Source of the DNA: an uncultured Spirochaetota bacterium | Lineage (GTDB): Bacteria > Spirochaetota > B62-G9 > CAZFGQ01 | Length of the DNA: 64,000 bases | Assembly (NCBI GenBank): GCA_964518675.1 | Contig: CAZFGQ010000003.1 | Span: 759 to 64,758, forward strand | Reading direction: 5' to 3' | Part shown: piece after piece, positions 19,345-63,201 of the stretch | How positions within the stretch are numbered: position 1 is the stretch's first letter | Layout: every line of letters starts with the position of its first letter | The notes under the pieces: generated by a model | Told to the model about the DNA's origin: nothing | Database searches by the model: none | What the model saw: the letters and a program-made list of their open reading frames with translations, nothing else | Translations under genes and position numbers: made by a program

Positions 19345-19556
19345 CTCCCCTTTGAGTTCGATACGATGAGAGTTACGAATTATCCTGTCGCAGATAGCAT
19401 TTGCAATTGTGGGGCCTCCGATTACCTGGTGCCATTTGTTTATTGGAATCTGAGAGACAACGATTGAGGATTTTCTACCAATCCTATCCTCCAGGATTTC
19501 TAATAAACCCAAACAATTTGATGCATCAAAAGGTTCCAGCCCCAAATCATCTATTT
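19345..19556 (-). mobile_element. IS21-family istB C-terminal fragment
   Basis: IDDLGLEP…LLEILEDRIGRKSSIVVSQIPINKWHQVIGGPTIANAICDRIIRNSHRIELKGE. Confidence 0.85.
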
Positions 19557-19572
19557 ATTTTGAGCTCAACAC

Positions 19573-19820
19573 AAATAGATGAGCTGGAATACACTCCTCT
19601 AAGCCCAGAGGATGCTAATTTATTTTTTCAGCTGGTATCCCGTAAATATGAGAAGACCTCTATCGTTATTACTTCTAATAGGAACTTCAAGTATTGGGGC
19701 TCAATATTTAACGATGAAGTAATAGCTGCTGCGATAATTGACATACTGTTCCATCATTCACATTTATTTGTTATAAATGGCCCCAGTTACAGGATTAAGG
19801 ATAAGGTTGTAAAGGAAAAA
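19573..19820 (+). mobile_element. Second IS21-family istB C-terminal fragment, opposite orientation
   Basis: IDELEYTP…LFFQLVSRKYEKTSIVITSNRNFKYWGSIFNDEVIAAAIIDILFHHSHLFVINGPSYRIKD. Confidence 0.85.
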
Positions 19821-19832
19821 CTTAATTTACAC

Positions 19833-20669
19833 CCAGGTCTCATCATAGCAAGCGTACCAGGAATCTTTCCCATTAATTTGATCATTTTACCCGTTCCCAT
19901 GGGCATTGCATCCATAAGTTCTGGAAGCATTAACTTCATTAAATCGGCAAAACCCTGTGGAGTCATAAGAGCGATCATGGCTTTAAATACTGCTTGCTGT
20001 TTCGTATCCTCGGGATTCGGATCTAGCATATCATACCTAAGTGCCTTAGCTACATAGTGCGCAAGGTCCTGCACCTCTATATCCAATCTTTTTTGTGCAG
20101 AAACCTTCAGATGAAACTCGCAGCACGGGCACAACGCCAGGACTTTTTTTGTACCCACCTCGTGGCCAAACCCATATCATTTTCCACATAACTCGCCGTA
20201 CATCCTGCAAAATAAACCACGGAAGATTCCGCGTCAGGACCCTATTTCTCGATTAAATCTTCGGGGAACCAATCACTTTTGTTTTTCCTGGATCCAGCCC
20301 ATATATTACCCTCTTTCCGGGGAGCAGCTGCCATCATCTCAAAGGGCGGAAATGTCATTTTTTTATTTTCATGGATCTCATTAACCTCCGAGTTTCATAC
20401 AGGAGGATTCAATTGTTCACATTCCTCAACACAGAAACCGTATTGAGAACAACTGTATGCATACCATGCAATATCAGCAGGTATTCCTCTTGTATCCTTT
20501 TCAAATCTTTATCCAATCCGGGCACTTACCCTATTCCCAAGAGAACGAAGAAATGGCTCAAACTTTCTCCTGCTATACTTACCGATATTCCAACAACTCC
20601 CGAGTTTATCACCTTTCTGGGATTCATAATACCAAACTCATCTTCTGACTTCTTGAAATCGCCCAATTT
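19833..20669 (-). pseudogene. Highly fragmented FAD-binding/(Fe-S)-binding CCG-domain oxidoreductase remnant
   Basis: Colinear pieces in different frames: FGIMNPRKVI, IAWYAYSCSQYGFCVEEC, MTFPPFEMMAAA…EK*…VYFAGCTASYVEND, VLALCPCCEFHL…MDAMPMGTGKM. Confidence 0.7.
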
Positions 20670-22202: not shown

Positions 22203-23312
22203 TTATCTCACTGCCATATTCGTCTGCGTAAGCGGATCTATTACCCTGCTTTTATGCCAGACCTCAAAATGTAGATGTGGTCCTGTAGAACGCCCTGAAT
22301 TACCAGAAAAACCTATTATCTGAGCTCTTCTCACCCTTTGACCCCTAGATACTCTTATTCCTGAAAGATGAGCATACACAGTTTTATAACCGAACCTGTG
22401 TTGAAGAATAATAACCCTCCCGTAACCTATCCTGTAACCCGCATACAGCACCACACCATCCTGGGCAGCATAAACAGGACTGCCACAACGACAGGCAATA
22501 TCGATTCCCGTGTGAAAGGAATGCTTTCCCGAAAATGGATCCCGTCTATAGCCAAACCTGGAAGTTATCCACCCTCTTACGGGTTTATCAAAGGCCTCCC
22601 CAAGCACATAGGCTCTTTCGATGTTATTGTACCTGACACCTGGAAGGAATATCTTCATACCAGGTGTAAGTTCGTTGGTTTCAAGCTCATTAACCTCCAT
22701 AATCAGGTCAGTGGGAACCTTATACTTGGAGGTATATTTAAATATTGTATCACCTTCCTGAACATTGATAAATATGCCTCTCATATTTGGAAGATATATA
22801 ACATCACCCTCATGAATCATATGAACATTTGAAAAAGTATTACAGCTTATAATACTATCAGGATCTATATCGAACTTTCTTGCAATACTCCAGAGGGTAT
22901 CACCCCTTTTAACCCTGTATTCAATCAACCTGAGTTTGGGTATGTAATTTTCAAGACCTCCACGAGCTTCACCCGATTCTCCGGGAGAAAGCCTTATGCT
23001 TATGGGACTATTCCACGAAAAATCACCATAGAATGGAAGCTCTTCTTTAAAAAATGAGAAAGGGCTGGGAACCAAGAATAGTATAAAATCCAGAACCAAT
23101 ACTAAAATTGTGAGTTTTATGTAATGGACAATTCTGTACCTGCTTATAAATCTTTTACCAGCAAAAATTAAATATCGAACTCTTCTCACAGCTCGCCAGT
23201 AAAAATCCGATATAAATTGTCCTACCAACAATCCTGTAAAAGATAGGCTCTTTTTTAGCCTGATTAATAAACCATTCAGTTTAGAATCATTTGATATGAT
23301 CTTCGATGGCAT
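22203..23312 (-). CDS. LysM + M23 metallopeptidase
   Basis: YRVKRGDTLWSIA LysM, HTGIDIA and STGPHLHFEV M23 motifs. Confidence 0.9.
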   Translation of the reverse strand: MPSKIISNDSKLNGLLIRLKKSLSFTGLLVGQFISDFYWRAVRRVRYLIFAGKRFISRYRIVHYIKLTILVLVLDFILFLVPSPFSFFKEELPFYGDFSWNSPISIRLSPGESGEARGGLENYIPKLRLIEYRVKRGDTLWSIARKFDIDPDSIISCNTFSNVHMIHEGDVIYLPNMRGIFINVQEGDTIFKYTSKYKVPTDLIMEVNELETNELTPGMKIFLPGVRYNNIERAYVLGEAFDKPVRGWITSRFGYRRDPFSGKHSFHTGIDIACRCGSPVYAAQDGVVLYAGYRIGYGRVIILQHRFGYKTVYAHLSGIRVSRGQRVRRAQIIGFSGNSGRSTGPHLHFEVWHKSRVIDPLTQTNMAVR

Positions 23313-23500
23313 TTAATACCTTAACCCGTTGCGTATCTATAATTTTTGATTATAAATAAATGAAATTATATTTCAACCCCATTTTCCTAATTTAAACTGT
23401 TATAAGATTTATTCAGTCTCTTTTAAATCAATTAAAATCGAAGAGGTAGCAATATATTCCCTTGAGATCAGGATTGGTTAATACGACTAAAACCATAATT

Positions 23501-24649
23501 TTACCGAAGTTTTGTAAGTTTCAATGGATTGATTATCTTTCTTCCATGATGTACTTCAAAATGCAGATGAGGCCCGGTTGACCTTCCCGTATTTCCCATC
23601 AACGCTATTTTCTGGCCCTGAGTAACATATCTTCCACGTTTTGTATATATCTTATAGAGATGTGCATAAAGGGTCTTATATCCGTTTGGATGCTGGATAA
23701 TCACCGTCCTACCATAACTTCCGTAATAACCTGCGTATATTACCTTTCCTCTCTGTGCAGCATAGACTGGGGTCCCCTGGGCATTTGCTATATCAATCCC
23801 AGCATGGAATGCAATTTTGCCCGTAAATGGATCTTTCCTGAAACCAAAAGTTGATGTTAATCTTCCATAAGCAGGCCTTCTAAAAACCTCCCCAAGAGCA
23901 ACAGCCCTGTCCCAATCAGAGAGTTTCCCTCCGGGGATAAAAATCTTTTGCCCAACAACAATCTTCGAAGATGATAAATCATTGATATCAGCTATCCTGG
24001 TTATACTGACCCCGTACTTTTTTGAGATTGAATATAAACTGTCTCCCCTCTTGACTGTATAAAAAATCCCGCTAATATTAGGTATTCTTAATGTTTTGCC
24101 AACCTTAAGTGAGGCTCCATTTTTTATTTCATTTGCTGTTATTATTGTATCAACAGTAATTCTGAATGACCTTGCAATTCTGTAGAGAGAATCTCCTTTT
24201 TTAACTGTATAATTTATGACTTTCAAAAGGGGAAGATTGGTATAATCCCCTCCTGTATCATTTACCCCGCTCTCAATACTTTTAATCAGCTTTTGCTTAT
24301 AATAAGCCTCTGTTAATGGATCCTCTTCATAGAAGAACTTTCTATTCTTCTCCCAGGAAATGGTTGAAATGTTTATATAAAATGGAATAAAAGAGAAAAA
24401 TGCCACCATAAAAATTACAACAAGCAGAACAATTCGCTTGAGAGGAAAAACCTGCTTTACCAGAAATAAAAAAGGCCTGTTATCCAGCGGTGAAAATCCA
24501 CCAATTTTCTTTGACCTCTCCTGAGAGTGCTTAATGCACCTTTTTTTAACTATCTCCTGGTTTTCAAGAACTCTTCTTTTGATATCATTTTTGTTTTGAA
24601 GCCTGGCTACTTCTCTAGATTTTTCTATAAAGATCTCTGTAACTGGCAT
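23501..24649 (-). CDS. LysM(x2) + M23 metallopeptidase
   Basis: Two LysM repeats (YTVKKGDSL, YTVKRGDSL), HAGIDIA, STGPHLHFEV. Confidence 0.9.
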   Translation of the reverse strand: MPVTEIFIEKSREVARLQNKNDIKRRVLENQEIVKKRCIKHSQERSKKIGGFSPLDNRPFLFLVKQVFPLKRIVLLVVIFMVAFFSFIPFYINISTISWEKNRKFFYEEDPLTEAYYKQKLIKSIESGVNDTGGDYTNLPLLKVINYTVKKGDSLYRIARSFRITVDTIITANEIKNGASLKVGKTLRIPNISGIFYTVKRGDSLYSISKKYGVSITRIADINDLSSSKIVVGQKIFIPGGKLSDWDRAVALGEVFRRPAYGRLTSTFGFRKDPFTGKIAFHAGIDIANAQGTPVYAAQRGKVIYAGYYGSYGRTVIIQHPNGYKTLYAHLYKIYTKRGRYVTQGQKIALMGNTGRSTGPHLHFEVHHGRKIINPLKLTKLR

Positions 24650-31967: not shown

Positions 31968-31998
31968 AAAAGGCTGCTCTTCAAAGAGCAGCCTTTTT
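31968..31998. terminator. Bidirectional intrinsic terminator between glnA and the convergent operon
   Basis: AAAAGGCTGCTCT-TCAA-AGAGCAGCCTTTT. Confidence 0.85.
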
Positions 31999-34203: not shown

Positions 34204-35553
34204 TTAAAATGAAAACTGTGTTTCAATGAACGTTTGATCCGTTGACTTACCAGAAGGTGTATACGTTCTCTTAAAGATGAACACTATCTTGGCCATACCG
34301 CTTACTTTATACCCAACCGTTAACTGCATAATGGTATCTGCACCACTGAAAAGATCCTTAAAATTATCTATATCCTTTTTATCAAAGGCAAAACTTGCAT
34401 CAATCTTTGGAATTGCACCCTCAACTGTGGAAAGTCCCGATTGAATCCTGGGACCCTCAGCATCATTAAATCCATCAGACCAGCTGAATTGAAACTGAAG
34501 AAGATTTAATATCGAAAAACCGGTCCCCAGCAGATATCCCATGTAAGAATCGGTAATTGTATCAAGTGAGTTATACTTCGTTGCCCTGTCAAGTTCGTAG
34601 TAAGGATCAAAATAGCTCATAACAAATTGCTTACCAAAAAATCTAAGCTGAGCAATAAACCTGAACCAGTCATAGGTCAGAGTGCTTCCTATGAGTCCTC
34701 CACTCCCCTTCCCGCCGATCTTGGCATAATCTGCGTACGAAATTATGCTGAGTTTACCTTTCTGCAAAAGTGGAACCTCTGTATCAATCCCGAACTCTTT
34801 GACCCTGTTATCTTTGCTATCAGGATTATCTTTCGGTGACCGGTACTTCTCATAATCAGGATTTGTCGGATCATTCACCTCAAGTGGATCCAGGTCAGTT
34901 ACAAATGAGGCACCAACCTTTAGCTGGTTTATTATTGGAACATCGAGTGACATCAAAGGTCTGGAATAAACACGAAGACCTATTATATCCCAGTCAAGAA
35001 CATCATCCACTATAGATTCAAACCCAATAAGAGGAAAATTAAAAAGAGAGCCATCCAGATCCACATTTAATCCAAGTTGATGTATCTGTGGATAAAAAAG
35101 TATATTGTTGTATCCTTCCATAATCAGGCCATGCCCCAGGGTGTATGTTTCTATGGCACCGGCCCTCACATAAAGTGGATCTCCTTTATGTCCGTATCGG
35201 ACATAGTATATCTTATAAAGATAATCCGTAAACTTTGTCCAGGTATCGGCTTTGCCGTCATTATCCAGATCTCTGAGTTTAAAATCCCCATCGAACTCAA
35301 AGGTCAGGTCCAGACCCACGCCGAGCTTGCCGTATGAAAACTCTGGAAAGAAACTGAATTTCTGAAAGGCTATCTGCTGACCACTGCTATCCTCATAACT
35401 TGAAAGACCAATATTAAGATTCATGTTGAATCCAAACTTTGGTTTTTCAGAGGATTTTTCATCATCGCCACTCTGTCCAAATGCTACTCCCACAATCCCA
35501 AAGCCAAAAGCAATCAGAAGCACCAGCATAATGACCAGAAACTTTTTTGCCAT
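34204..35553 (-). CDS. Exported predicted beta-barrel protein, paralogous to the C-terminal part of 32129-34186
   Basis: Signal peptide. Shared blocks PE..FGKLG.GL, K.YYV..G..GDP.Y and LGHG.I...Y.N. Ends TQFSF. Confidence 0.6.
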   Translation of the reverse strand: MAKKFLVIMLVLLIAFGFGIVGVAFGQSGDDEKSSEKPKFGFNMNLNIGLSSYEDSSGQQIAFQKFSFFPEFSYGKLGVGLDLTFEFDGDFKLRDLDNDGKADTWTKFTDYLYKIYYVRYGHKGDPLYVRAGAIETYTLGHGLIMEGYNNILFYPQIHQLGLNVDLDGSLFNFPLIGFESIVDDVLDWDIIGLRVYSRPLMSLDVPIINQLKVGASFVTDLDPLEVNDPTNPDYEKYRSPKDNPDSKDNRVKEFGIDTEVPLLQKGKLSIISYADYAKIGGKGSGGLIGSTLTYDWFRFIAQLRFFGKQFVMSYFDPYYELDRATKYNSLDTITDSYMGYLLGTGFSILNLLQFQFSWSDGFNDAEGPRIQSGLSTVEGAIPKIDASFAFDKKDIDNFKDLFSGADTIMQLTVGYKVSGMAKIVFIFKRTYTPSGKSTDQTFIETQFSF

Positions 35554-35613: not shown

Positions 35614-38600
35614 TTAAAACAGAAATTTTATTCCCAAATCTAATTCAAATCCAGCTGAAGGCAATAAATTCCCCTTTTCAACGGGCGGAACAATCTTTTC
35701 CTCCACCCCTATAACAGATTTCGCCGTAACATAAAAACTCAAACTATCAGAAACTGAAAAATCTGTTCTGTGCTGAAATGTAAATCTAACAGGAATGTTG
35801 CTGAAAGCGCTTGCAAGTTCTCTGTCAGTAAAAGTATAGATATTTTCGATAGTAATTTTTTCAGAGTTTTTAAAATAGTATTCCTTCTCCTGATAGGGTA
35901 AAAGTTTGAACATGAAAGTCCTATATACAGGAATTTTCCATAACCACTCAACAGAAACAGTCGATGAAAGTTTATCTTCCCAGGGTTTCTGGGGAATTTC
36001 CTCGCTGGATTCAGGCTCATCGGGTATTAATGTAAGATTGGTACTTTCTCGCTTCTGTCTACTACGCTGATAACTCCCATTCCAGCCAACAGCAAATCCC
36101 CTATCAATTTCTTTTAAATCTCGATATTTAACTGAAGTCTCAAACCTGTTTTTTAAAACCCTTACTGTATAGTCTCGCTCATGGGTATATTTTAATGAAA
36201 AATCAATATCTTTTTCGTATAATTCATCACCTCTTTTCAGGTCAACTAGTTTTTCCAATCTTCCCTCATAGCCACGCATCTGTGTATACGAACCAGAACT
36301 CCTTTCAGTTTGGCCGTAGACAGAAACCCCAAAATTGGTTGGTAAAAACCAGACATCCCTGTTTAAACTGATGTCGAGATTATATTTGTTGTAAAGTTTA
36401 TTTTTCGTGTCTCCATAATTAAACAAATTTACCGCATTGTAATCCTTTTGCCTTCCCAAAGAAGGAAACGGACTTATGTAATACAGAGGAGGCATTAGAA
36501 TTGTTTTAAATAGATTAAATAAAATCTCATTTTCTGTTTTATTATAAGGGAATTTTTTATAATCCCCCGTCATGTACCGATCCATACTTCCAGTTACTTT
36601 CAGCAATTTAAAATTAACTGGTATCTGAATGTTCAAGGTACTGGTAGCTAAAAGATCTCTTATCCTCTCATCCTCGATAAAGTTTGACTCAGAATAGGTA
36701 AACCCGATGCTGGACGTAAAACCAACCACTTCCTCCGGTATATATTCAATATTAAAACTTCCATTATCTGTACTCGAAAACAGATATGCAGATTCAAGAG
36801 AAGCCGATGGTTTTGAAAAAATATCTCCAAAACGTTTTAGATAAGAATCATACCACTGAGAATAGTTCATAACACCGGAGCCGAGAAAGTCTCTATCCCT
36901 TGAAAAACCCAGACTTGTACTGAAACTCTCTATACCATATCCTATCGAGAAACGGTTTGAATGTTCCAGTTCTCCACTCTCCGTTCTCTGCAAAATATCA
37001 GGTGTGGATGAGGTTCTTTTTCCTTCAATTCTCTGTATCCATCCCCTGGCGAGTTGCCATGTTGTCCAGAGCCCAAATGGAGGGCTGTAATTAGTGTACA
37101 ATGTAAATCTATTTTCATATTCTTTTAAGATCGAATCCCTGAAGCCGAACTGCTCAAGCTCCATCTTTGATAAACTCTTTTCTGTGAAATCATATCTGTG
37201 CCCCACAACAGGGAACCAACTACTTTCCGGTGAATATTCAATGCTGCTTGATATTACCATCCTGCTCTCACTGGGAGATTCAAACTCCTCAATATCAACT
37301 TTTTCATCTGAACTTTTTTCATTCCACAGGATGCTAGCATCTATCTTAAATGCCTTTGCAACAGTGAAACCTGATTCAAGGAGCGTATTTTTCTCACTCC
37401 ATCCCCTTCCACTTGAAAAGGAACCAGATTTTTTTTCATATTCTCCGTTCAAAAAACAATCGCCAATTATGGGAAATCCCATGATATTGAACAAGTTTCC
37501 CCTGTAACCAAGCCTCGCTCCCGTAAAATATGCCACACTTTTGTAATTCTCGGGATTTGCCAGATGGATCTCATCAACCCACATGGTAAATCCACTTCCA
37601 ATTATCCCTGAATCTGGACGGACAACAAACTTAATCTCTGTGACATGCTTCAACACATCAAGTTGGGCCGTTTCTGTAAGTGAACCTGCATCTGTATCAT
37701 TCACATATATTTTCTTTTCACCAAAAAGCTGGAGACTAACTTCATTCCAGCCAGTTACAAAACTTGCGCCCTCAATCTCAGCCTGAAGAAACTGATCATC
37801 CGTCGATTTTATCCTTATTAAAATTGAGAAATTTTGAGGGATGGATTGCCCTTCGGGAAAATAAAGATAAACTTTCATGTCCCGGTAGCCTGAAAAATCC
37901 ATCTGTCCACCAAACAACACAGAAAAGGATGCCTCTGTGGTAATATCACCAATTGCTCGTACCACCAGAGTTTTTTCAACATGACCAGTTTGGCTCCTGT
38001 ATCTTTGAGATCCATGAAGATCCTCATATATAGCTGGATAACTTTCAGAAAACCTGTTACTGTAGACCTCAGCATCTTCATCAATCGATACCTCACTTAC
38101 CGATAGAAGATCAGGGGAATTATTCTTTATTCTGGATCCCGACAACCATAGCCCGTTAATCAGAACCAAACCATTAAGGGGCTGTGAAGTTCCCGTACCT
38201 GTCAGAGTAATCCTGATCGCAGTAACATACTGAAGGATATCGCTATAATTTTGAACAATATTGTGTAGAGGCACAGCAATTGTCTGCCAGTCTGTCTCAC
38301 CTGTATTGATTTCAGCCAGGTATTGAGTTCCATCTGGTCCGGGGATAATAACACCACTCTCTGTACTATCAAGAACCCCATTACCATTTATATCTTCAGA
38401 TTCCAAAGTACCATTACTTCCACCCTCTCGATCGGTACCCAGTTTTGTTTGTTGTCCTCCTAAAGGAACGATCATAAAACCATTATCATTCACAGATTTC
38501 TCTCCATCCAGCACACCATCTCCATCGAGGTCTTCATTATAATCCTTTAAAAACTCTACATATAGCCTTACCGGTCCACCTTCAATTTCTGTAGCTTTAA

Positions 38601-40818
38601 AAAGAATGTTAAAGGTATCATAAATAGAAAAGTCCTCCGGACCTACAGGGGTAACCATTGTAACATAATCATCTTCACCACCATCCGGAATCTCATACTC
38701 CATTACAAGGGAGTTTTCACTGGAATAATCCGGGTGGTTCGATGTATTGTAAGGTCCCGCCTTCTCGCTGTAGTCAAATACCTGATCCTGTGGAATCTCC
38801 CAGCTTAAATCCTCTAGCACTTCGCCTGAAAGGACGGTGCTTTTGTAGTAGTTTTTGTATAAGAGATCTCCCCTGGTAGTTAATTGAACACCGTTGTCCT
38901 CAAGAATCTGTGATTCAGAACCTATAATCCAGCTCTCAGCTTCATTGCTTACCCGAAATATTGCTTCTGAGGACTCCATATCATCTATAATGGCTTTTCC
39001 ATGGGGGTTTGGATTGGTCAAACCCAATCCAACTCCCGCCTGAGCTTCAAAATAAGCCCCCTCTTCATCCTCATTAGCCCCTATTTTGAAACCTATCTCT
39101 GTACTGTTGTAAATATCTCGTTTACCTTCAGCACCCAATTCAGGAGCTTCCCGAGTTCCCAGAGGAGACCGGTAAAGGGTAAGATTTTTCAGATCTATAA
39201 AATCATTTGAGTAAAAAAGGCCAAACTGTCCTACCAGTCCTTTATTACCACCCCCAAAACTCGTATATCTGTATTTTATCTCTATCTCGCTTGTTGGAGT
39301 TACAACACCTTCCCCGAAGGTTACCGTGCCAAATGAATAATCCACTTCATAATCACTTTCCTTCAGAACTTTCCCATCAACTACAATTTCCACACTTCCA
39401 GGTATAACATTAAAATCGAGAAAGAAAGTATCAGTATAAAAACTATACGAAAACTCAAGTTTATTAATCGATTTATCTACAGTGGGATATGAAAGACCTC
39501 CATATACTGGATTATCCTGATCAAAAGGGTTATTCTCGGTCGTTACAGGTGACGAATAAGGGGAAACACCGGGAAAAGGTCTTGGATAAAAATTGCCAGT
39601 ACCATCCGTAAAGTTAAAAAAAACCACTCCTCTTTCAGAATCGATACTGTACTGGTCTATAATATCATCATAATTACTGTTTGGACTTGAGTTTTCTGTG
39701 TAGAGGAGTCTCACTTCAAAGCTTGAAATCCCCGTCCCCTCATATGAGGGCAGAGGATATGCATTTCTCAACTCCCAGTAGCTATTAAAAGCCCTCTTTT
39801 TTAAATACAGAAACTCCCCACTGCTATCAAAATACTGAGGGAAACTGTTGGAGTTGAAATCAACCCTTACTCCACTTTCACCAATTATTGCACCAATCCC
39901 CAGCGAAGTAGAACCAACTGCCTGTCCGCCCTTCGTATAGTAACATACAAGTTCATCTTCACTGGCCAGAGAGTTTTCAAGGTATATAAATCCAGTTGAC
40001 GGATCAAAATCATAGTCAACACCTTCTATAAGAAGTCTAAAATCTTTATTATCCAGTGTAAGATCTACAGTTGTCGTAGATGAAACATAGAGCCTGAGAG
40101 AATCCGTGTCTATATCCTTATCAGGAATGAAAAAGTATGTTGACTTTATATAGTCCACATCATAAACTTCATCAACCACATCCCGCCTGTTTCCCTTGAA
40201 TACCTTAACTCCCTCATATCCAACATCATAGCGGAGAAGTGCATTAAAATATAATTGATCCCACCCTCCCAGTGCTCTCAGCGCAAAGCTATCTGGTGAG
40301 GCTTCATCCACTTTTACATACCTTCCACCTTCAACGCCAAGATACTTATTTCCCACCGTTACTTCTTTTAAAAACTCATCCTCTTTCCCTCTGTATTCAA
40401 CAGAGTAAATATTATTTTCCTCCAGCAAGCCTTCCTCCGTTCTCTCCGAATCGTAATCAAACTCAAAATGAATTCGATCTCCAATAGTACCATCTATCAA
40501 AAGTTTTTCCAGCATGTCATATTTTAATCCCCTATCTATTCCATAGGACCCTTCTCCAACGGTAATGCCCTTTTTCAAGGGGAAAGTAAACCCATACCCA
40601 AGGTCGAGCTGAATTTGCCCTTCTATATTCAATTCAGTTTCAACAGAATAATCCTTTTTAAAATTGAATTTTTCCAATGGATTATGGAAAAAACCACCTG
40701 AATAAACTGGGAAGTAAAACGAGGCTTCTGAAGAAGGCACTATACTGGCAGGGAAAGATAAAAAAAGTGCGATGAAAATAAAAAGAGTTTTTGTTTTTGC
40801 ATATCTAAATATTTTCAC
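35614..40818 (-). CDS. Very large exported outer-membrane protein, SprA/Sov-like (T9SS translocon homologue)
   Basis: Signal peptide, colinear SprA-like blocks (IDGTIGDRIHFEFDYDSE…VEYRGKEDEFLKEVTVGN; NVIPGSVEIVVDGKVL…DYEVDYSFGTVTF; AIIDDMESS), and a beta-rich C-terminal third ending GIKFLF. Confidence 0.65.
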   Translation of the reverse strand: MKIFRYAKTKTLFIFIALFLSFPASIVPSSEASFYFPVYSGGFFHNPLEKFNFKKDYSVETELNIEGQIQLDLGYGFTFPLKKGITVGEGSYGIDRGLKYDMLEKLLIDGTIGDRIHFEFDYDSERTEEGLLEENNIYSVEYRGKEDEFLKEVTVGNKYLGVEGGRYVKVDEASPDSFALRALGGWDQLYFNALLRYDVGYEGVKVFKGNRRDVVDEVYDVDYIKSTYFFIPDKDIDTDSLRLYVSSTTTVDLTLDNKDFRLLIEGVDYDFDPSTGFIYLENSLASEDELVCYYTKGGQAVGSTSLGIGAIIGESGVRVDFNSNSFPQYFDSSGEFLYLKKRAFNSYWELRNAYPLPSYEGTGISSFEVRLLYTENSSPNSNYDDIIDQYSIDSERGVVFFNFTDGTGNFYPRPFPGVSPYSSPVTTENNPFDQDNPVYGGLSYPTVDKSINKLEFSYSFYTDTFFLDFNVIPGSVEIVVDGKVLKESDYEVDYSFGTVTFGEGVVTPTSEIEIKYRYTSFGGGNKGLVGQFGLFYSNDFIDLKNLTLYRSPLGTREAPELGAEGKRDIYNSTEIGFKIGANEDEEGAYFEAQAGVGLGLTNPNPHGKAIIDDMESSEAIFRVSNEAESWIIGSESQILEDNGVQLTTRGDLLYKNYYKSTVLSGEVLEDLSWEIPQDQVFDYSEKAGPYNTSNHPDYSSENSLVMEYEIPDGGEDDYVTMVTPVGPEDFSIYDTFNILFKATEIEGGPVRLYVEFLKDYNEDLDGDGVLDGEKSVNDNGFMIVPLGGQQTKLGTDREGGSNGTLESEDINGNGVLDSTESGVIIPGPDGTQYLAEINTGETDWQTIAVPLHNIVQNYSDILQYVTAIRITLTGTGTSQPLNGLVLINGLWLSGSRIKNNSPDLLSVSEVSIDEDAEVYSNRFSESYPAIYEDLHGSQRYRSQTGHVEKTLVVRAIGDITTEASFSVLFGGQMDFSGYRDMKVYLYFPEGQSIPQNFSILIRIKSTDDQFLQAEIEGASFVTGWNEVSLQLFGEKKIYVNDTDAGSLTETAQLDVLKHVTEIKFVVRPDSGIIGSGFTMWVDEIHLANPENYKSVAYFTGARLGYRGNLFNIMGFPIIGDCFLNGEYEKKSGSFSSGRGWSEKNTLLESGFTVAKAFKIDASILWNEKSSDEKVDIEEFESPSESRMVISSSIEYSPESSWFPVVGHRYDFTEKSLSKMELEQFGFRDSILKEYENRFTLYTNYSPPFGLWTTWQLARGWIQRIEGKRTSSTPDILQRTESGELEHSNRFSIGYGIESFSTSLGFSRDRDFLGSGVMNYSQWYDSYLKRFGDIFSKPSASLESAYLFSSTDNGSFNIEYIPEEVVGFTSSIGFTYSESNFIEDERIRDLLATSTLNIQIPVNFKLLKVTGSMDRYMTGDYKKFPYNKTENEILFNLFKTILMPPLYYISPFPSLGRQKDYNAVNLFNYGDTKNKLYNKYNLDISLNRDVWFLPTNFGVSVYGQTERSSGSYTQMRGYEGRLEKLVDLKRGDELYEKDIDFSLKYTHERDYTVRVLKNRFETSVKYRDLKEIDRGFAVGWNGSYQRSRQKRESTNLTLIPDEPESSEEIPQKPWEDKLSSTVSVEWLWKIPVYRTFMFKLLPYQEKEYYFKNSEKITIENIYTFTDRELASAFSNIPVRFTFQHRTDFSVSDSLSFYVTAKSVIGVEEKIVPPVEKGNLLPSAGFELDLGIKFLF

Positions 40819-41206
40819 TTAGCTGTTTGTATATCAGTTTTCCTATACCTATCTGATCACTATTGGCAATTATCTTAGAATACTCTTCATATAACATATC
40901 ACTAAAAATATCTTTCGCAAGAGAATCTCCCATGAAGCCCGTTTCATTTATTGTTTTTCTCATACTCTTCAGCATGATGTTAATGAAAATGGCCTCCATC
41001 TGGTGGCAAACATCGAGGAGCTTTTTCTTGTACCTCTCTTTCTCGGGGGATTCAGTTTCATCCTTTGAGCATTCTCTCAGTTTCTCAGAAAGCATTTCGG
41101 AAAAAGTTTTAACCCGATTTAATCTCTCGGCTTCTGAGTTGTTACGAGAGATTTTACTTAACTCGTTGTAGTTTATAAGATTCAGGTCGATCGCTTTAAG
41201 CTCCAT
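40805..41206 (-). CDS. flgJ: Short FlgJ-like rod-binding protein (no muramidase domain)
   Basis: KLLDVCHQMEAIFINIMLKSMRKTI…IFSDMLYEEYSKIIA…IGIGKLIYKQL. Confidence 0.8.
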   Translation of the reverse strand: MELKAIDLNLINYNELSKISRNNSEAERLNRVKTFSEMLSEKLRECSKDETESPEKERYKKKLLDVCHQMEAIFINIMLKSMRKTINETGFMGDSLAKDIFSDMLYEEYSKIIANSDQIGIGKLIYKQLSENI

Positions 41207-41276: not shown

Positions 41277-42071
41277 CTATCGCTTAAGTGCATTCGCTGT
41301 AGCAAGCATAGAGTCAGATGTGATTATTGCCTTTGAATTGATCTCGTATGCCCTCTGGGCAACAATCATATTAACCATTTCTTCCACAACTTGGACATTT
41401 GACATCTCAAGAAAACCCTGGTGTACCTTTCCCATACCATAATATCCAGGTTTCCCGGCAATGGGGGGACCTGAAGCTGCAGTTGGTTTCACAAGGTTCT
41501 GGCCTATATTTTTCAACCCTGCTGGATTAACAAACCTGTAAAGTTGAATCTGTCCGACCTCGATTGGGATATCGCTTCCCGCAACTTTTACTGTAACAAG
41601 TCCATCCTGGCTTATCGATATATCAGTAAAAACAAAACCTTCAGGAAATATTATCTCGGGACTGAGCTTATACCCATTGCTATTAACAATCTGTCCGTTA
41701 GAATCAATCTTAAATGTTCCATCCCTGGTGTATCCGAATGTACCATCATAAAGCTGCACCCTGAAAAAACCCTCACCCTCAATGGCTATATCCAGCTTAT
41801 TTCCTGTATTCTGAAGACTACCCTGTGAGTACATCTTCTGGGTTGCAGCGGGTCTAACACCATGTCCAACCTGTATTCCCGTTGGAACCAGGGTGTCACG
41901 GGTAGCAGGAGTCCCGGCTGAGCGAATCGTCTGGTACAATAGATCCTCAAAATCTGCCCTGCTTTTTTTGTAACCAGCCGTATTTACATTGGCAAGATTA
42001 TGGGCAATTGTATCGATGTTGAATTGCTGCCCGATCATTCCACTTGCGGCCGTCCATAATGATCGCATCAT
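41277..42071 (-). CDS. flgG: Flagellar basal-body distal rod protein
   Basis: MMRSLWTAASGM, IAHNLANVNTAGYKK, QGFLEMSNVQVVEEMVNMIVAQRAYEINSK. Confidence 0.96.
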   Translation of the reverse strand: MMRSLWTAASGMIGQQFNIDTIAHNLANVNTAGYKKSRADFEDLLYQTIRSAGTPATRDTLVPTGIQVGHGVRPAATQKMYSQGSLQNTGNKLDIAIEGEGFFRVQLYDGTFGYTRDGTFKIDSNGQIVNSNGYKLSPEIIFPEGFVFTDISISQDGLVTVKVAGSDIPIEVGQIQLYRFVNPAGLKNIGQNLVKPTAASGPPIAGKPGYYGMGKVHQGFLEMSNVQVVEEMVNMIVAQRAYEINSKAIITSDSMLATANALKR

Positions 42072-42141
42072 CTTCTCTACCCTCGGTGTAAATTAATAAT
42101 TGTTAAAACTGAAAACAGGATCTTGGCCTTCATCGATCCTG

Positions 42142-42987
42142 TTAAACCTTCCCAACTTCATTTATCACCCTTCCCAGCATCTGGTCATGGCTCTGTATTG
42201 CCTTCTGGTTGGCCTCGTAGTTGCGATGAACCTCAATGAGCCTGACCATCTCAACTACAGGATTAACATTGGATGCCTCAATAAACCCCTGCCTCACCTT
42301 GGGCCTTCCCGTCTGGATAACAAAAGGAGTTCCGGAGTATTCGGTCTCCCTGTAGAGACTTTCACCAACCTTTTTTACATATCTAAGCTTCGGAAAATCA
42401 ATGATCTTCAGCCTGTCAACAAGGATCGTCTGATCCCATTCGTTCTCTGAAGGATCCACAAGCCTGTTTGGATCCTGCATATATCTTGCATTTATGAAAA
42501 CATTGCCATCTTCATCAACGATAAAATTATTCTTTTTAATCTGTATCGGACCATTTTCTCCAAGAACTCTGTAACCATCCTTGGTTACAAGATAGCCGTC
42601 TTTATCTACAAGAAAACTTCCATTTCGCGTATATCTCTCTCCATCTGGAGTTTGAACTGCAAAAAATCCTTTACCCTCCAGGGCAAGATCGAACTGGTTA
42701 TCCGTTCTGATAAAAGAACCCTGTGTAAACTGGGTATACACCTCATTAACCTCTACTCCCGTTCCAAGCTTACCAACTATCGGCATGAGGTCATAACTTC
42801 CAATTGGCAAAACCCTCACTCCGTCATCATTTATCCTGTGAATCAGCATCTCAGGAAACGATTTAAAAATTGTCAGATCCCTCTTGTACGATGGAGTATT
42901 GACATTTGCCAGGTTGTTTGATACCACGTCGATCCTTTTCATCTGGACAATCATTCCGCTTGCACCGGTATAGATCCCGCGAACCAT
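42142..42987 (-). CDS. flgF: Flagellar basal-body rod protein FlgF/FlhO
   Basis: MVRGIYTGASGM, VVSNNLANVNT, GERYTRNGSF, QGFIEASNVNPVVEMV. Confidence 0.85.
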   Translation of the reverse strand: MVRGIYTGASGMIVQMKRIDVVSNNLANVNTPSYKRDLTIFKSFPEMLIHRINDDGVRVLPIGSYDLMPIVGKLGTGVEVNEVYTQFTQGSFIRTDNQFDLALEGKGFFAVQTPDGERYTRNGSFLVDKDGYLVTKDGYRVLGENGPIQIKKNNFIVDEDGNVFINARYMQDPNRLVDPSENEWDQTILVDRLKIIDFPKLRYVKKVGESLYRETEYSGTPFVIQTGRPKVRQGFIEASNVNPVVEMVRLIEVHRNYEANQKAIQSHDQMLGRVINEVGKV

Positions 42988-43448: not shown

Positions 43449-43642
43449 ATTATTATCCAACGTTCAATTCCATGTTTTTCCATTTACGTTTTTTCAGTGC
43501 TTCATAACGCAACTTCAAAACTTAATTGAAGAAATGCGGGTAATCCGTCTGTTTTTCAAAATTTTTTTACAAAAATATTCAGGTTTTTTCAAAACACCCG
43601 ATAATATTAGCGGATCTGTTATGGTTAATGATCACCCAGAGG

Positions 43643-43674
43643 AAGGGGCCAGTACTTAACAGTACTGGCCTTTT
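43643..43674 (+). terminator. Intrinsic terminator
   Basis: GGCCAGTACT-TAAC-AGTACTGGCC followed by TTTT. Confidence 0.8.
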
Positions 43675-43730
43675 CGTATTTATTAATCCGTATTTATTAA
43701 TCAATGGTAAAACTTTTATTTGTAATACTT

Positions 43731-58190: not shown

Positions 58191-59473
58191 TAGTCTGGGC
58201 ATTGGTGTTCGCGGCAGTATTTGCACTTGGATATCCAATTGCACTGGGAATGTTTGTGAGTTCAATTCTTTACCTGCTGATCTCACACATTGATCTTTTA
58301 ACAGTTATGGATTTAATGGTAATAAAGTTTGAAAACCAGTTTGTCCTGCTGGCAGTCCCGCTTTTCATATTCACGGCAAAGGTAATGAATGCTGGAAAAC
58401 TGACCGACCGATTGTTCGATTTCGCAAAGGTTATTGTTGGTCCTCTGAAAGGGGGACTTGGACATGTAAACATCGTTGCAAGTATTATATTTGCGGGGAT
58501 GTCCGGTTCCGAAATAGCAGACGTTGCGGGTTTGGGTACAGTAGAAATAAAAGCTATGAAGGATGCAGGATACGATGGGCCCTTTGCATGTGCAGTTACA
58601 TGTGCTTCAGCCACAATCGGGCCAATTATCCCACCCAGTATCCCGATGGTAATATATTCGATGTTATCCGGAGCTTCTGTGGGATACCTTTTCCTAGGAG
58701 GGATAATTCCCGGGCTTATCCTTGGTGCCACAGAAATGATACTTGTACTTATACTCTCTATAAAGAGGAACTATCCATCTGGTAAATGGGTTCCTTTCAA
58801 AGAGTTTATTAAAATTACGGCCGAGTCATTTCCAGTTATTCTGGCACCTGCAATTCTCCTTGGAGGAATATACGGAGGAATATTTACACCAACTGAAGCG
58901 GCGGGAATCGTGGGGATATACGTTGTAATCCTGAGCCTCTTTGTCTACAGATCTCTCGGCTTAAAATCACTCTACAAAGTGCTTATAGAATCGGTGGTAA
59001 GCACGGGGTTCATAAGCTTTATCGTTGCCGGTGCATTCCTGTTCGGATATGTTGTGGCAAGAGAAGAAATTCCCGCAATGATAACACAGGGCTTTGTAAA
59101 TCTCGGACTGATGCACAGCAAATGGACTGTTCTGCTTTCGCTTAATCTATTATTCCTGGCACTCGGATGTTTCATAGATGTTTCTGCAATACTTCTTATA
59201 ATAGTTCCAATTGTTCTTCCACTTGTTCAGGCGGCAGGAATCGATCTTGTTCACTTTGGTGTTGTTACGGTATTTAATCTGATGATTGCTCTGGATACAC
59301 CACCATATGGAGAAACCACATTCATAACAAGTGCAATTAGTGGTACTCCCCTGCCGGATGTACTGAGGGAGATGATCAAGTTTATAGCATTTGAATTAAT
59401 CGCACTATTTATTGTCACATATATTCCCGATACAGTACTTTGGATTCCAAGACTTGCGGGCTATCAGGGCTAA
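58181..59473 (+). CDS. TRAP transporter large permease DctM
   Basis: LAVPLFI, GGLGHVNI, SGSEIADVAGLG, IGPIIPPSIPM, GGIFTPTEAAG. Confidence 0.93.
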   Translation: MAVIVWALVFAAVFALGYPIALGMFVSSILYLLISHIDLLTVMDLMVIKFENQFVLLAVPLFIFTAKVMNAGKLTDRLFDFAKVIVGPLKGGLGHVNIVASIIFAGMSGSEIADVAGLGTVEIKAMKDAGYDGPFACAVTCASATIGPIIPPSIPMVIYSMLSGASVGYLFLGGIIPGLILGATEMILVLILSIKRNYPSGKWVPFKEFIKITAESFPVILAPAILLGGIYGGIFTPTEAAGIVGIYVVILSLFVYRSLGLKSLYKVLIESVVSTGFISFIVAGAFLFGYVVAREEIPAMITQGFVNLGLMHSKWTVLLSLNLLFLALGCFIDVSAILLIIVPIVLPLVQAAGIDLVHFGVVTVFNLMIALDTPPYGETTFITSAISGTPLPDVLREMIKFIAFELIALFIVTYIPDTVLWIPRLAGYQG

Positions 59474-59525
59474 AAACTCTGATACAGTTATTCAATACAA
59501 TCCACCACGAAAAGGGGTGATTTTA

Positions 59526-60767
59526 ATGAACACAATTGATGAAAAGTTTATCGAGAGTTTATATCAAGACCTGACTCCCGTTACCCGGAACCGGGTTGAT
59601 GATACAGTATCAAAAATTGTAAAAATAAAAGAAAAAGGGCAAAAAGTTGTTGTTATGATGGGAAGTGGACCCAATATTCACGAAGGAGTTACCACCCTTG
59701 TTTCAGAGCTGATAAAAAAACATATAATAGATGGAGTCATTACAAGCTCAGCTGTGATAGCCCATGAAATGGCCGGTAGCCTTGATAGAGTAAAAAGGGT
59801 AAATGGAATTGAACTGGGGATCAACAGTGGTATTTTACCCCGGGGCGATATTTTTGAAATAACCCTAATGGATGAAGATACACTGAAGAAAATTCAGGAG
59901 GAGATGATTATCGACAATGAGCTGATAAAAAAAGCGCTTACCATGCCAGGAAACTCTATTATAAAAGCTGCGGGTAATATGGCATATCCTATGGGTTTAA
60001 GGACTGAAAAATTAGCAGTAGAAGTAGAACTCATTTCAAAAATCACCGGCAAACCTTTTGAATACATAGCTGGACTTGGAGCTGATAACAGAACAATGAT
60101 AGGAGCCGGAGCCCAGAACAATGTTCCTGTGATAGTCTCTGTGCCACAGCTTGTGGGAGGAGGAATGGTAGGTCTGTGTATTGCCGATAGCATACCAATA
60201 AAAGAAAGGTCAAAAGCTCTTGCTGATCTTTTGGAAAGTGCAACCCTCATAATAGAATCTGCTGTTGCTCTAACACAGGAAATACACGATGGACCTTTTG
60301 AGACATACACGGGTCATGGTATATGGTCTGCATGGACCGGTATAAAAACCTATTCACTCAAAAACAAAAGCATAGTAAGAATTGATCTCGATCCAAATCT
60401 TGAAAAGGCATGGGAAGCTGAAAAGAAAGACAGAGCGGTCCAGGAGGCAGTTGATAGGGGACTGCCAAAAACAAAGATGCTAAAAGTCCCATTCAGAATG
60501 GAAATGTCAGGCTTCGCAAGGCTTGAGGATAGTATACCAATAGTCGGGGACATTGGGGTAATATGGCCCATAATAGCCCTTAAGGTTTCAAAAGCTTTAA
60601 ATGTGCAACTTGACTTTATATCTTATCCGCAGGAAAGTGAACCCGGCAAAGAAATGAGAGAATGGATTGTCAAAGAAGTAAAGATCCTCGACAGAAATCT
60701 GATGATAGAAAAAGCAACTGGAGGAAAGACATACGCCGCTGAAATCTCCAAATTAATTGAAACATAA
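59526..60767 (+). CDS. Hypothetical protein, deoxyhypusine-synthase-like fold suspected
   Basis: KVVVMMGSGPNIHEGVTTLVSELIKKHIIDGVITSSAVIAHEMAG and GAGAQNNVPVIVSVP resemble DHS-like NAD-binding segments. ATG at 59526 after AAAGGGGTGA. Confidence 0.45.
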   Translation: MNTIDEKFIESLYQDLTPVTRNRVDDTVSKIVKIKEKGQKVVVMMGSGPNIHEGVTTLVSELIKKHIIDGVITSSAVIAHEMAGSLDRVKRVNGIELGINSGILPRGDIFEITLMDEDTLKKIQEEMIIDNELIKKALTMPGNSIIKAAGNMAYPMGLRTEKLAVEVELISKITGKPFEYIAGLGADNRTMIGAGAQNNVPVIVSVPQLVGGGMVGLCIADSIPIKERSKALADLLESATLIIESAVALTQEIHDGPFETYTGHGIWSAWTGIKTYSLKNKSIVRIDLDPNLEKAWEAEKKDRAVQEAVDRGLPKTKMLKVPFRMEMSGFARLEDSIPIVGDIGVIWPIIALKVSKALNVQLDFISYPQESEPGKEMREWIVKEVKILDRNLMIEKATGGKTYAAEISKLIET

Positions 60768-61566: not shown

Positions 61567-62457
61567 ATGGGAAACTGGAACGGTGTAATATCCGCAATCA
61601 TAACTCCCATGAAAGAAGATGGCAGTGCTATAGATACCGGGCCTGTAAAAGATTACTGTGACTTTATAATAGATAAAGGTGTAAGCGGGATATTTGCTAT
61701 GGGAACTACCGGTGAAGGGCCACTTCTTTCACTGGAAGAGAAAAAAATTATATCAAAAAAAATAGTGGATTCCGTAAATGGAAGAACCAGGGTCATTATT
61801 CAGAGTGGATGCATTACAACAGAAGAAACAATTCAGTTAACAAGATACTCAAAAGACATCGGAGCCGATGCAGCGGGAATACTTATTCCATATTATTATA
61901 ATCTTGACGAAGAGGCTATCTTTGAACACTTTGCACGGGTAGCAGAAGCTGTACCAGATTTTCCAATCTTCATATACAATATCCCACAGTGCACCTGCAA
62001 TAATCTAAGTGTGAAATTATTTGAAAGGCTAATCAATGAAATCGATACTATTGCAGGAATTAAAACGAGCAATCCTGATATATTTCAGATTATCGGTTTC
62101 GTTCGGGCTGCGAAAAATAAATGCTCGGTGTTTATCGGCAGCGATGGCCTGGTTCTTGCTGGACTGTCCTCTGGGGCGAGCGGCGTAGTGTCGGGAAATG
62201 CTTCTGTATTTCCGGAACCATTGATAGATCTGTATAATGCATTCAACCGGGGTGAAAGAGAGAAGTGCATCGAATATCAGCAACTCGTAGATAAAATGAG
62301 AACGGCTCTTGGTGACGGATACTATATCGATGCCTATAAAAAAACCCTTTCTATTCTGGGAATAGAGGTTGGGAAGCCCAGAAAACCGAACAGAGAACTT
62401 ACTAAAGAAGAGTTCGAGAGACTAAGGAAATCCCTATCAGAACTGGGATTCCTTTAA
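61567..62457 (+). CDS. DapA/NanA-family class I aldolase
   Basis: MGTTGEG, FIYNIP (catalytic Tyr), GIKTS (Schiff-base Lys). Confidence 0.88.
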   Translation: MGNWNGVISAIITPMKEDGSAIDTGPVKDYCDFIIDKGVSGIFAMGTTGEGPLLSLEEKKIISKKIVDSVNGRTRVIIQSGCITTEETIQLTRYSKDIGADAAGILIPYYYNLDEEAIFEHFARVAEAVPDFPIFIYNIPQCTCNNLSVKLFERLINEIDTIAGIKTSNPDIFQIIGFVRAAKNKCSVFIGSDGLVLAGLSSGASGVVSGNASVFPEPLIDLYNAFNRGEREKCIEYQQLVDKMRTALGDGYYIDAYKKTLSILGIEVGKPRKPNRELTKEEFERLRKSLSELGFL

Positions 62458-63201
62458 CAAAGGGATTTCATATGTACAGGGCAATCCCACAACACACTTG
62501 CCACAGACACTTGGTGAACCAAGATCGGTATAGAGTTCTCCATTTTCAAGGCACCTCTGCCAGCAACTAAACCTGTTAAATCCTGAAACCCTGAGGGAAT
62601 CATTTACACATTTCTCAACACAAACAGTGCAACTCTCATCCCTCTTATAAAGACAATACTCATCATCATCCCTTGGTGAAGGTTGCATTTCAAGATCTAT
62701 TATAATTGAACTTGTTCTTCCGGCACATCCAGATTTAGTTATCAGCATATTATTTAGTCCGAATTTACCTATACCAGCAATATATCCTGCATGTCTATGT
62801 GACCACCTGCTGACAAGTTTTTCTCTATCAAAATTATGTGTTGGAAGGATAACAGCACACTTAATATTTTTCTTTCTGAAGAACTCTTTCAGCATCTCCG
62901 AAATTTCAACAAGCAACTGGTTCGTTGCGATATAGGAATAAGCCCAGAATCTTGAAGCGGAATTTCCCAAGAGGTTGCTTTCCACAACTCTTTTATCAAA
63001 TGGTATGAAGAAAACGACAACTGTTTTTGCTTCTGGAAGAAGTTCCTCCGGAAGAAAATGACCGGGGTAGGTAACCTCTCTCAGTCTTTTAAAAAGTGAA
63101 TCAGATGCATCGGCATAACCCACAATGGGCTCACGCCATAAACCTTCACGGTTTTTACTTCTCACAAAATCTACTATAAGATTTCTGATTTTTTCTTCCA
63201 C
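62437..63201 (-). CDS. QueG-like (epoxyqueuosine reductase family) Fe-S protein
   Basis: KTVVVFFIPF, WSHRHAGYIAGIGKFGLNNMLIT, C-terminal CxxCxxxC and CGKC…PC clusters. Confidence 0.72.
   Translation of the reverse strand: MEEKIRNLIVDFVRSKNREGLWREPIVGYADASDSLFKRLREVTYPGHFLPEELLPEAKTVVVFFIPFDKRVVESNLLGNSASRFWAYSYIATNQLLVEISEMLKEFFRKKNIKCAVILPTHNFDREKLVSRWSHRHAGYIAGIGKFGLNNMLITKSGCAGRTSSIIIDLEMQPSPRDDDEYCLYKRDESCTVCVEKCVNDSLRVSGFNRFSCWQRCLENGELYTDLGSPSVCGKCVVGLPCTYEIPLLKESQF

Follow-up and report, generated by a model that had tools for sequence, protein, structure and literature searches.

The stretch of DNA examined here, 64,000 nucleotides of contig CAZFGQ010000003.1 from an uncultured Spirochaetota bacterium (the window), carries on its minus strand a gene for an exported protein of 1734 aa, which we refer to as the giant. 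This gene is followed by genes for two further predicted outer-membrane proteins, OMP449 (449 aa) and FecR685 (685 aa), and is preceded by genes of the flagellar rod (Table 1). It was found that the giant, although deeply diverged, is homologous to SprA/Sov, the pore that a type IX secretion system (T9SS) has in the outer membrane, with common ancestry over most of its length, and that its relatives are encoded in two alternative gene modules, termed type A (that of the window) and type B.

Table 1. Features of the giant locus; positions are counted from the first letter of the window.
Feature	Position	Strand	Basis
Terminator-like hairpin, 13 pairs and a T tract, just 3' of FecR685	31968..31997	-	Consensus scan
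FecR685: FecR/LipL45-type domain (residues 67-167) and C-terminal barrel of ~430 aa	32129..34186	-	Pfam, NCBIfam, BLASTP, synteny
OMP449: exported beta-barrel protein of ~20 predicted strands, conserved downstream partner	34204..35553	-	AlphaFold2 (AF2), Foldseek, synteny, 85 homologues
Giant SprA-like outer-membrane protein gene, type A spirochaete subfamily	35614..40818	-	Open reading frame (ORF), homologues, hhalign, Foldseek
Giant: C-terminal barrel region, residues 1078-1732	35623..37587	-	26 consecutive long beta-strands (AF2), conserved ...KFLF beta-signal at the end
Giant: central region of mixed beta domains, residues 641-1077	37588..38898	-	AF2 secondary structure; colinear SprA alignment
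Giant: N-terminal SprA-homologous region, residues 88-640	38899..40557	-	hhalign; BLASTP segments to P0046/P0047; DSSP of the model
Giant: signal peptide, residues 1-32	40723..40818	-	Read from the sequence: basic n-region and hydrophobic core, then a SEA|S cleavage-like site
Rod-binding protein gene, flgJ-like, immediately upstream of the giant	40805..41206	-	Pfam Rod-binding, 1.3e-14
flgG (41277..42071) and flgF (42142..42987), flagellar rod genes heading the apparent unit	41277..42987	-	Pfam; conserved order in type A loci and L068
15-pair hairpin between a Rieske oxidoreductase gene and flgF	43642..43675	.	Consensus scan

The T9SS and its SprA/Sov pore are regarded as a hallmark of the Bacteroidota and the Fibrobacteres-Chlorobi-Bacteroidetes (FCB) superphylum (PMC4793230, PMC10994853, PMC11205867). 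In the TXSScan analysis, T9SS was found in Bacteroidetes alone among a data set that included spirochaete genomes (PMC4793230). Our search of the literature for SprA or T9SS in Spirochaetota, or for the locus tags of the Spirochaeta thermophila members described below, returned nothing relevant.

The ORF of the giant begins with a GTG codon. The N-terminus of its product, MKIFRYAKTKTLFIFIALFLSFPASIVPSSEA, reads as a Sec signal peptide from which a lipobox cysteine is absent, and the C-terminus ends in ...GIKFLF, with a final residue (F1734) that is invariant across the 40 homologues of the family alignment. An earlier note, made from the letters of this DNA, had described an exported 1734-aa protein with this ending, and had listed a series of blocks in the order described for SprA of Bacteroidota. 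All of these blocks were located in the translation, from N to C: IEGQIQLDLG at residues 65-74, IDGTIGDRIHFEFDYDSE at 108-125, SVEYRGKEDEFLKEVTVGN at 139-157, DYIKSTYFFI at 222-231, NVIPGSVEIVVDGKVLKESDYEVDYSFGTVTF at 470-501, AIIDDMESS at 609-617, and ESEDINGNGVLD at 806-817. The N-terminal SprA-homologous region holds the conserved blocks DRIHFEFDYDSE, DYEVDYSFGTVTF, and IIDDMES together with three long barrel-type strands at residues 541-602, and the central region contains an acidic motif, EDINGNGVLD, and closes with the motif WVDEIHL. The first database search returned 44 homologues at 29-96% identity, unannotated and mostly full-length, and a later exhaustive search found 511 representative clusters; the gene is thus no chance ORF.

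We then assessed the relationship of the giant to SprA/Sov, for which the references were the TIGR04189 and PF14349 (SprA_N) models and the Flavobacterium johnsoniae structures 6H3I, 6H3J, 8GL6, and 8GL8. The first database search also gave two weak matches that carry PF14349 (P0046 and P0047), to both of which the giant aligned by BLASTP in three colinear segments. Both are bona fide members of TIGR04189 (485 and 728 bits; cutoff 200), as are the bridging PF14349 proteins overall (485-1114 bits), and P0046 matches F. johnsoniae SprA (6h3i) at E 3e-27. A profile built from 40 sequences of the giant family (A1), searched against 5.8e9 sequences, matched 11 PF14349 proteins with a best E of 1.3e-20, and also exposed intermediates. 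On TIGR04189, the intermediates P0177, P0180, and P0048 score 153, 75, and 100 bits, under the cutoff, and P0049 scores 207. With hhalign, A1 aligned to 13 SprA_N proteins with probability 100 and E 8.9e-54 over 1302 columns. The blocks listed by the earlier note were paired in the profile-profile alignment with the conserved SprA blocks DRxHVxVDYDSEREF, VDYxxDYxxGxVTF, AYLDDFE, and EDLNxDGxLD.

A local hhalign rerun gave a single colinear alignment of residues 88-1485 with P0047 residues 210-1933, or approximately 80% of the length. The ~408 additional residues of P0047 are scattered over many small indels without any domain loss in the giant, and the unaligned C-terminal tails are nearly equal (249 aa in the giant, 242 aa in P0047). 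Because the alignment is colinear and the extra SprA residues are dispersed, the giant is best described as a uniformly slimmed SprA, being neither a fragment nor a domain fusion, which agrees with the suggestion of the earlier note that it is a shorter SprA homologue.

The predicted structure points the same way. Residues 535-1734 (1200 of 1734) were modelled with AF2 from the family alignment, at a mean pLDDT of 84.5. The model has 29 long barrel-type strands, 26 of them consecutive at residues 1078-1732 and three at 541-602, with mixed beta domains between. At the top of the Foldseek matches in the PDB, and as the only strong ones, stood four F. johnsoniae SprA chains with E from 1.5e-27 to 1.3e-21 (8gl8_A, 8gl6_A, 6h3i_A, and 6h3j_A); a match at 4e-6 came fifth, and 22-strand TonB-dependent barrels after it. 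Low TM-scores (0.37 and 0.23) are what a fragment with an open sheet that cannot close would be expected to give. The modelled two thirds of the giant are thus predicted with confidence to have a SprA-like fold. The earlier note had proposed an AlphaFold model as a way to count the barrel strands, of which SprA has 36. The central region, which gave weak secondary Foldseek matches to CBM22 beta-sandwiches, may correspond to a cap or to inserted domains.

The distribution of the family was examined next. Of the 26 related loci found in GTDB genomes, one is recorded simply as an uncultured bacterium, and the others bear the label Spirochaetota, Spirochaetes, or a spirochaete family. Every member of the closer family that has a name is Spirochaetota by label. 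From the labels of these related loci the window genome is taken to be spirochaetal, as the earlier note had supposed. In an exhaustive phmmer search with residues 1-1200, 511 representative clusters passed E<=1e-3, and 76 of them also passed E<=1e-30. It was noted that a class of ~1600 aa is spirochaetal and includes the cultured Spirochaeta (Winmispira) thermophila, whose members (Spith_0681 / WP_014624338.1 / G0GAJ5, and STHERM_c06670) are annotated as "hypothetical protein"; A1 aligned to Spith_0681 at E 7.9e-39 by hhalign. A class of ~1900-2000 aa is sub-threshold on TIGR04189, at 153 and 75 bits, so that sequence space is continuous from canonical SprA to the spirochaete forms. The nearest PF14349 match for which a cluster name was looked up is P0051, from Candidatus Fermentibacter. 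The contig of a distant member, P0045, carries a TP_0070-family gene (L027, 15059-15472) and a LIC_12708-family gene (13101-14306, 398 bits), which also supports a spirochaetal origin of that lineage.

Each of the 24 GTDB metagenome-assembled genomes (MAGs) to which these related loci belong carries a single giant gene, and none combines the two module contexts. In four loci (L012, L020, L022, and L023) the gene consists of two or more overlapping ORF pieces, and these frameshifts may be sequencing or assembly errors, some of the sources being long-read MAGs, or real decay. In the chromosome-level MAG CP070841.1 (Spirochaetota bacterium bin100) the gene is split into two parts ~1.1 Mb from each other, the N-terminal part with flgF/G/J upstream (L026, 10001-11251) and the C-terminal part with OMP449 and FecR-barrel genes downstream (L015, 9821-13672). 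This could reflect a rearrangement, a pseudogene, or a misassembly.

Gene context was surveyed with hidden Markov model (HMM) scans of ~60 related loci, carrying out the mapping of homologues and synteny across Spirochaetota that the earlier note had proposed and reaching beyond it to the conserved downstream barrels and the two module types. In type A, the giant gene is followed by OMP449 and then by FecR685. Wherever a type A locus offered 3 kb or more of downstream sequence, the OMP449/FecR pair was there, save for the split gene of CP070841.1 and one other locus discussed below, and the trio of giant, OMP449, and FecR-barrel protein is also found in S. thermophila, there without flagellar genes. 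Both partners have signal peptides and conserved aromatic C-terminal endings, and OMP449 is a paralogue of the C-terminal ~430 aa of FecR685 (BLASTP E 7e-29). The N-terminus of FecR685 matches Pfam FecR (6e-15) and the NCBIfam LipL45/Lsa33 family. OMP449 has 85 homologues, including Spith_0680 of S. thermophila; it matched no Pfam or NCBIfam family and no PDB sequence. Its AF2 model (pLDDT 90.3, pTM 0.85) is a barrel of ~20 strands, and its barrel nature is firmly predicted on these values. The Foldseek matches of this model were to generic porin, OprD/Occ, AlgE, and usher barrels alone, at TM 0.2-0.4, with PorV/FadL structures absent from the top 50.

Two further observations concern these barrels. 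Weak relatives of OMP449 occur in Gemmatimonadota and Latescibacterota; such FCB relatives were considered as a bridge to the T9SS and set aside, as the one context examined (P0152) had no T9SS neighbours. The barrel of the S. thermophila FecR-barrel protein (L030, 11355-13544) weakly matches Leptospira ImpL63 (NF047543; E 9.5e-6, 24.5 bits). Should the match be genuine, ImpL63 may be a member of this barrel family, at odds with its name "cytoplasmic membrane protein".

The type B module was found at 18 loci (L029, L013, L016, L020, L022, L023, L025, L035, L043-L045, L047, L049, L051, L058, L061, L064, and L065), as exemplified by L029 (1221-12217). The type B giants are 27-31% identical to the window giant over the full length. 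Directly upstream of the giant, all 18 loci carry a gene for a PorV/PorQ-like protein of ~800 aa, and in the 12 type B loci with upstream sequence this gene is preceded by one for a Big_5 protein. Five of the ~800-aa proteins were tested against NF033709 (PorV/PorQ family, cutoff 90), on which three scored 102-112 bits and the other two 82-84, and all five also match PorQ. The barrel of these proteins is interrupted by a central coiled-coil-like insertion of ~470-550 aa. When the protein and its profile were searched against the PDB, only coiled-coil matches to this insertion were returned, so that the PorV/PorQ-like assignment is the one given by NCBIfam. The extreme C-terminus of the Big_5 protein matches the type A sorting domain TIGR04183 (cutoff 23) at 23.6 bits in L035 and at 17-20 bits in L013, L023, and L029. 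It also matches the PorU sorting domain and has a typical ending, GxYF...K-hydrophobic-hydrophobic-basic.

The two contexts were strictly alternating among the ~60 loci scanned: OMP449 was found in no type B locus, and a PorV/PorQ-like gene or a sorting domain in no type A locus. Type B modules are flanked by housekeeping genes, and FecR-barrel and flagellar neighbours are likewise absent from them. Within the type B flanks the sorting domain is confined to the adjacent cargo, which suggests a dedicated single-cargo module and not a general secretion system. From these sequence matches, type B has the appearance of a minimal T9SS-type unit with a single cargo, and the phylum is one to which no T9SS is ascribed.

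Considering these results jointly, we judge it probable, if by no wide measure, that the giant is an outer-membrane protein translocon homologous to SprA and working with separate partner barrels, which in type A would be OMP449 and the FecR-barrel protein. The giant would be exported by Sec, would then form a giant beta-barrel in the outer membrane, and would serve as a protein-conducting channel across it. The SprA of F. johnsoniae forms a barrel of 36 strands that bears a cap and has the carrier barrel PorV at its lateral opening, the loops of PorV hold the sorting domain of the cargo inside the SprA pore, and GldLM energy is required to pull the carrier-cargo complex off SprA (PMC10994853). 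Partner barrels may work with the giant in the way that PorV or PorP-type carriers dock at SprA's lateral opening. In the window clade, the carrier or gate role would fall to OMP449 and its FecR-domain paralogue, the FecR-type domain of which would lie in the periplasm.

Translocon function draws its best support from type B, because these modules encode cargo, carrier, and pore, three mutually touching parts of the SprA mechanism. The earlier note's reading of the giant as a pore is strengthened by this sister clade, where the giant gene lies directly behind one for a PorV/PorQ-family protein and one for a cargo that carries a type A sorting domain. For type A, we infer a pore function with OMP449-type barrels as partners from the strict alternation of contexts, the presence of one giant per genome, and the retention of the trio as far as S. 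thermophila.

Several observations weigh against this reading of the giant. The comparison with SprA_N and TIGR04189 that the earlier note had recommended came out negative, as the giant had no match to either model even at E<=1 in single-sequence Pfam and NCBIfam scans. Since profile methods later revealed the relationship, the failed scans are no argument against homology as such. The family profile also did not reach SprA among PDB sequences, its sole match being a spurious tailspike at E 2.3. The N-terminal extension is ~120 aa shorter in the giant than in P0047, with ~55 mature residues before the first aligned block compared to ~210, signal peptide included, and the extended N-terminus of F. 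johnsoniae SprA is held by SkpA and contacts SprE (PMC10994853). The structural model covers the part after the N-terminal 534 residues, and it is for this part that the 29 long strands are counted; a cap and a lateral opening are putative.

Further points on the same side concern the partner barrels. OMP449 was tried as a homologue of PorV, PorQ, or PorP and was rejected, given that it has no family or PDB match and a different fold, and that its hhalign comparison with the spirochaete PorV/PorQ-like family gave a probability of 1.5. HMM scans and Pfam, with a sorting-domain HMM that had been derived from the cargos of type B, found no PorV/PorQ-like gene, sorting-domain protein, or other T9SS component in the window or any type A locus. 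One intact type A locus, and only one, has flgG, the flgJ-like gene, and the giant but lacks OMP449 and the FecR-barrel within 6.6 kb downstream (L007, 15080-21671). Conversely, in other spirochaetes the OMP449/FecR-barrel pair directly follows a chemotaxis operon, cheW-cheR-cheD-cheA-cheY, on its own (L032, 10001-13476; L033, 10001-13398), and no giant gene is present up to a distance of 10 kb. The pair thus forms a unit of its own, and these cases together leave synteny as the single link by which the giant and the barrels are joined.

One alternative, which we regard as unlikely, is that the giant is the SprA of a canonical T9SS, complete but with its other parts (GldK/L/M/N, SprE/PorW, PorV, PorU/Z, and many sorting-domain cargos) encoded at other places of the genome, in which case only the taxonomy would be new and OMP449 and the FecR-barrel protein would be unrelated neighbours. 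T9SS genes are usually scattered, SprA being treated as a "loner" in the TXSScan model (PMC4793230), and spirochaetes with type B modules do have PorV/PorQ-family and sorting-domain genes. Against this stand the restriction of T9SS to Bacteroidetes in the TXSScan analysis cited above and to the FCB superphylum in reviews, and the confinement of the type B sorting domain to the adjacent cargo. The flanks of the type A giants, as scanned with the HMMs, lack PorV/PorQ-like and sorting-domain genes. Pfam annotation revealed no T9SS component in the 64-kb window or in ~13 annotated related contigs. In particular, gldKLMN/porKLMN genes were not found among the larger ORFs of the window, most of them Pfam-annotated, consistent with what the earlier note had reported, and neither the window nor the surroundings of any of the ~60 related loci contained motor or ring genes.

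A second alternative, in our view quite unlikely, is that the giant has been repurposed and exports no protein, acting instead with OMP449-type barrels in uptake, envelope biogenesis, or a structural role. FecR-type domains usually function in signalling or uptake contexts, the nearest folds to OMP449 are substrate-specific porins and exporters (OprD/Occ, AlgE), type A loci lack a recognisable cargo or carrier, and the giant has diverged in sequence past curated family thresholds. A protein released from export would fit poorly, however, with the colinearity to SprA over ~80% of the length without domain loss, with the conserved SprA motifs that have been kept, and with a closest subfamily that sits in cargo-plus-carrier modules.

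The flagellar neighbours of the giant were also considered. With its GTG start the giant gene overlaps the end of the flgJ-like gene, stop codon included, by 14 nt, and wherever a type A locus extended far enough upstream it showed the order flgG, flgJ-like gene, giant. The two hairpins of Table 1 bracket flgF, flgG, the flgJ-like gene, the giant, OMP449, and FecR685 as one likely transcription unit. This bracketing is suggestive only, as hairpin counts in the consensus scan were not above chance. A distant locus, L068 (1671-11752), has the order flgF-flgG-flgA-flgI-rod-binding-giant; its giant (P0177, 1918 aa) is ~24% identical to that of the window and sub-threshold on TIGR04189, and its FlgG is 73% identical to the window FlgG. 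Pfam and NCBIfam gave no flagellar family match for the giant, OMP449, or FecR685. Flagellar adjacency as proof of function was downgraded, being missing in S. thermophila, in all type B loci, and elsewhere.

That the giant is tied to the periplasmic flagellum, for instance as an outer-membrane or sheath component assembled with the rod and co-transcribed with flgF, flgG, and the flgJ-like gene, is a very improbable reading of the overlap, the hairpins, and the gene order shared with L068, because type A synteny extends well past the flagellar block (M16 peptidase, dUTPase, RNase J, and GlnA), so that inherited position would account for the adjacency, and flagellar genes are missing next to the giant in S. 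thermophila, in L027, L028, and L067, and in the 18 type B loci. Spirochaete flagella are not known to cross the outer membrane, which also counts against it.

The remaining larger ORFs of the window, most of them annotated with Pfam, are housekeeping, regulatory, and transport genes. An ORF at 19401-20057 (+), whose match to the IS21 helper ATPase IstB is confined to the C-terminal part of that protein (profile positions 159-236 of 238), is probably an insertion-sequence remnant. The gene at 10492-11853 (-) encodes a long tetratricopeptide repeat (TPR) array fused to a C-terminal Mrr_cat restriction-endonuclease domain, an unusual architecture, and adjoins two more TPR protein genes (11936-12673 and 12722-14626); nothing ties these to SprE/PorW. 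Tandem genes at 22203-24649 (-) encode LysM and M23 peptidase proteins of 369 and 382 aa, which are likely peptidoglycan hydrolases. The ORFs at 59412-60767 (+) and 62437-63201 (-), of 451 and 254 aa, matched no Pfam family at E<=1e-5.

Returning to the translocon reading, what appears to be new here, and what on present sequence evidence we hold to be rather more probable than its opposite, is a translocon of the SprA superfamily outside the FCB superphylum, missed by curated models and provided with novel partner barrels. A bolder version must be regarded as tentative and, on the whole, doubtful: a spirochaete SprA-type translocon that operates without GldKLMN/PorKLMN and comes in two flavours, one composed of cargo, PorV-like carrier, and pore, and the other, that of the window, having two novel ~20-strand barrels in place of PorV, one of which bears a periplasmic FecR domain. 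If true, this would be a distinct and unrecognised export system of the outer membrane in organisms outside the FCB superphylum, and it might show the T9SS core as it was before the acquisition of its motor.

The family comprises at least several hundred SprA-like clusters, and its named members are spirochaetal and include a cultured species with a complete genome. The curated models do not see these proteins, whose sole annotation is "hypothetical protein", and our results give a handle for naming them. The natural minimal modules of cargo, carrier, and pore may show what a SprA pore needs and how release of the carrier is powered. The family is also a candidate for the route by which proteins are exported across the outer membrane of spirochaetes, a poorly understood matter, and its window variant brings in two barrel proteins, as yet uncharacterised, as partners open to testing.

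FecR685 has the N-terminal domain type of the FecR/LipL45 proteins (PF04773; NF033165), whereas its domain is fused to a ~430-aa outer-membrane barrel in place of the anti-sigma transmembrane segment or the lipoprotein form found there. The barrel similarity to ImpL63 is far under the cutoff of that model (1000 bits). The type B modules and the window share a protein family, a phylum label, one copy per genome, and a compact three-gene form, but differ in GC content (67-69% in the type B loci, 39% in the window) and in their partners, which are upstream and recognisable as T9SS parts (NF033709, TIGR04183) in type B and downstream in the window. PorV, a carrier of the FadL family, and OMP449 are both outer-membrane beta-barrels encoded beside a SprA-type gene, with ~20 strands predicted for OMP449 compared to the 14 given for PorV in a passage citing earlier work (bioRxiv 10.1101/2025.01.03.631275). 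By analogy, a PorV-like role as lateral partner is conceivable for OMP449. Finally, the giant and SprA/Sov have in common their motif blocks, a giant beta-barrel fold, a signal peptide, and a C-terminal beta-signal. The giant is smaller (1734 aa compared to ~2000-2400 aa), and among the genes surveyed in the window clade none is for a motor, ring, SprE, Plug, or cargo. It belongs to the Spirochaetota, whereas SprA belongs to the FCB superphylum, and it is paired in the window clade with barrels that are not PorV.

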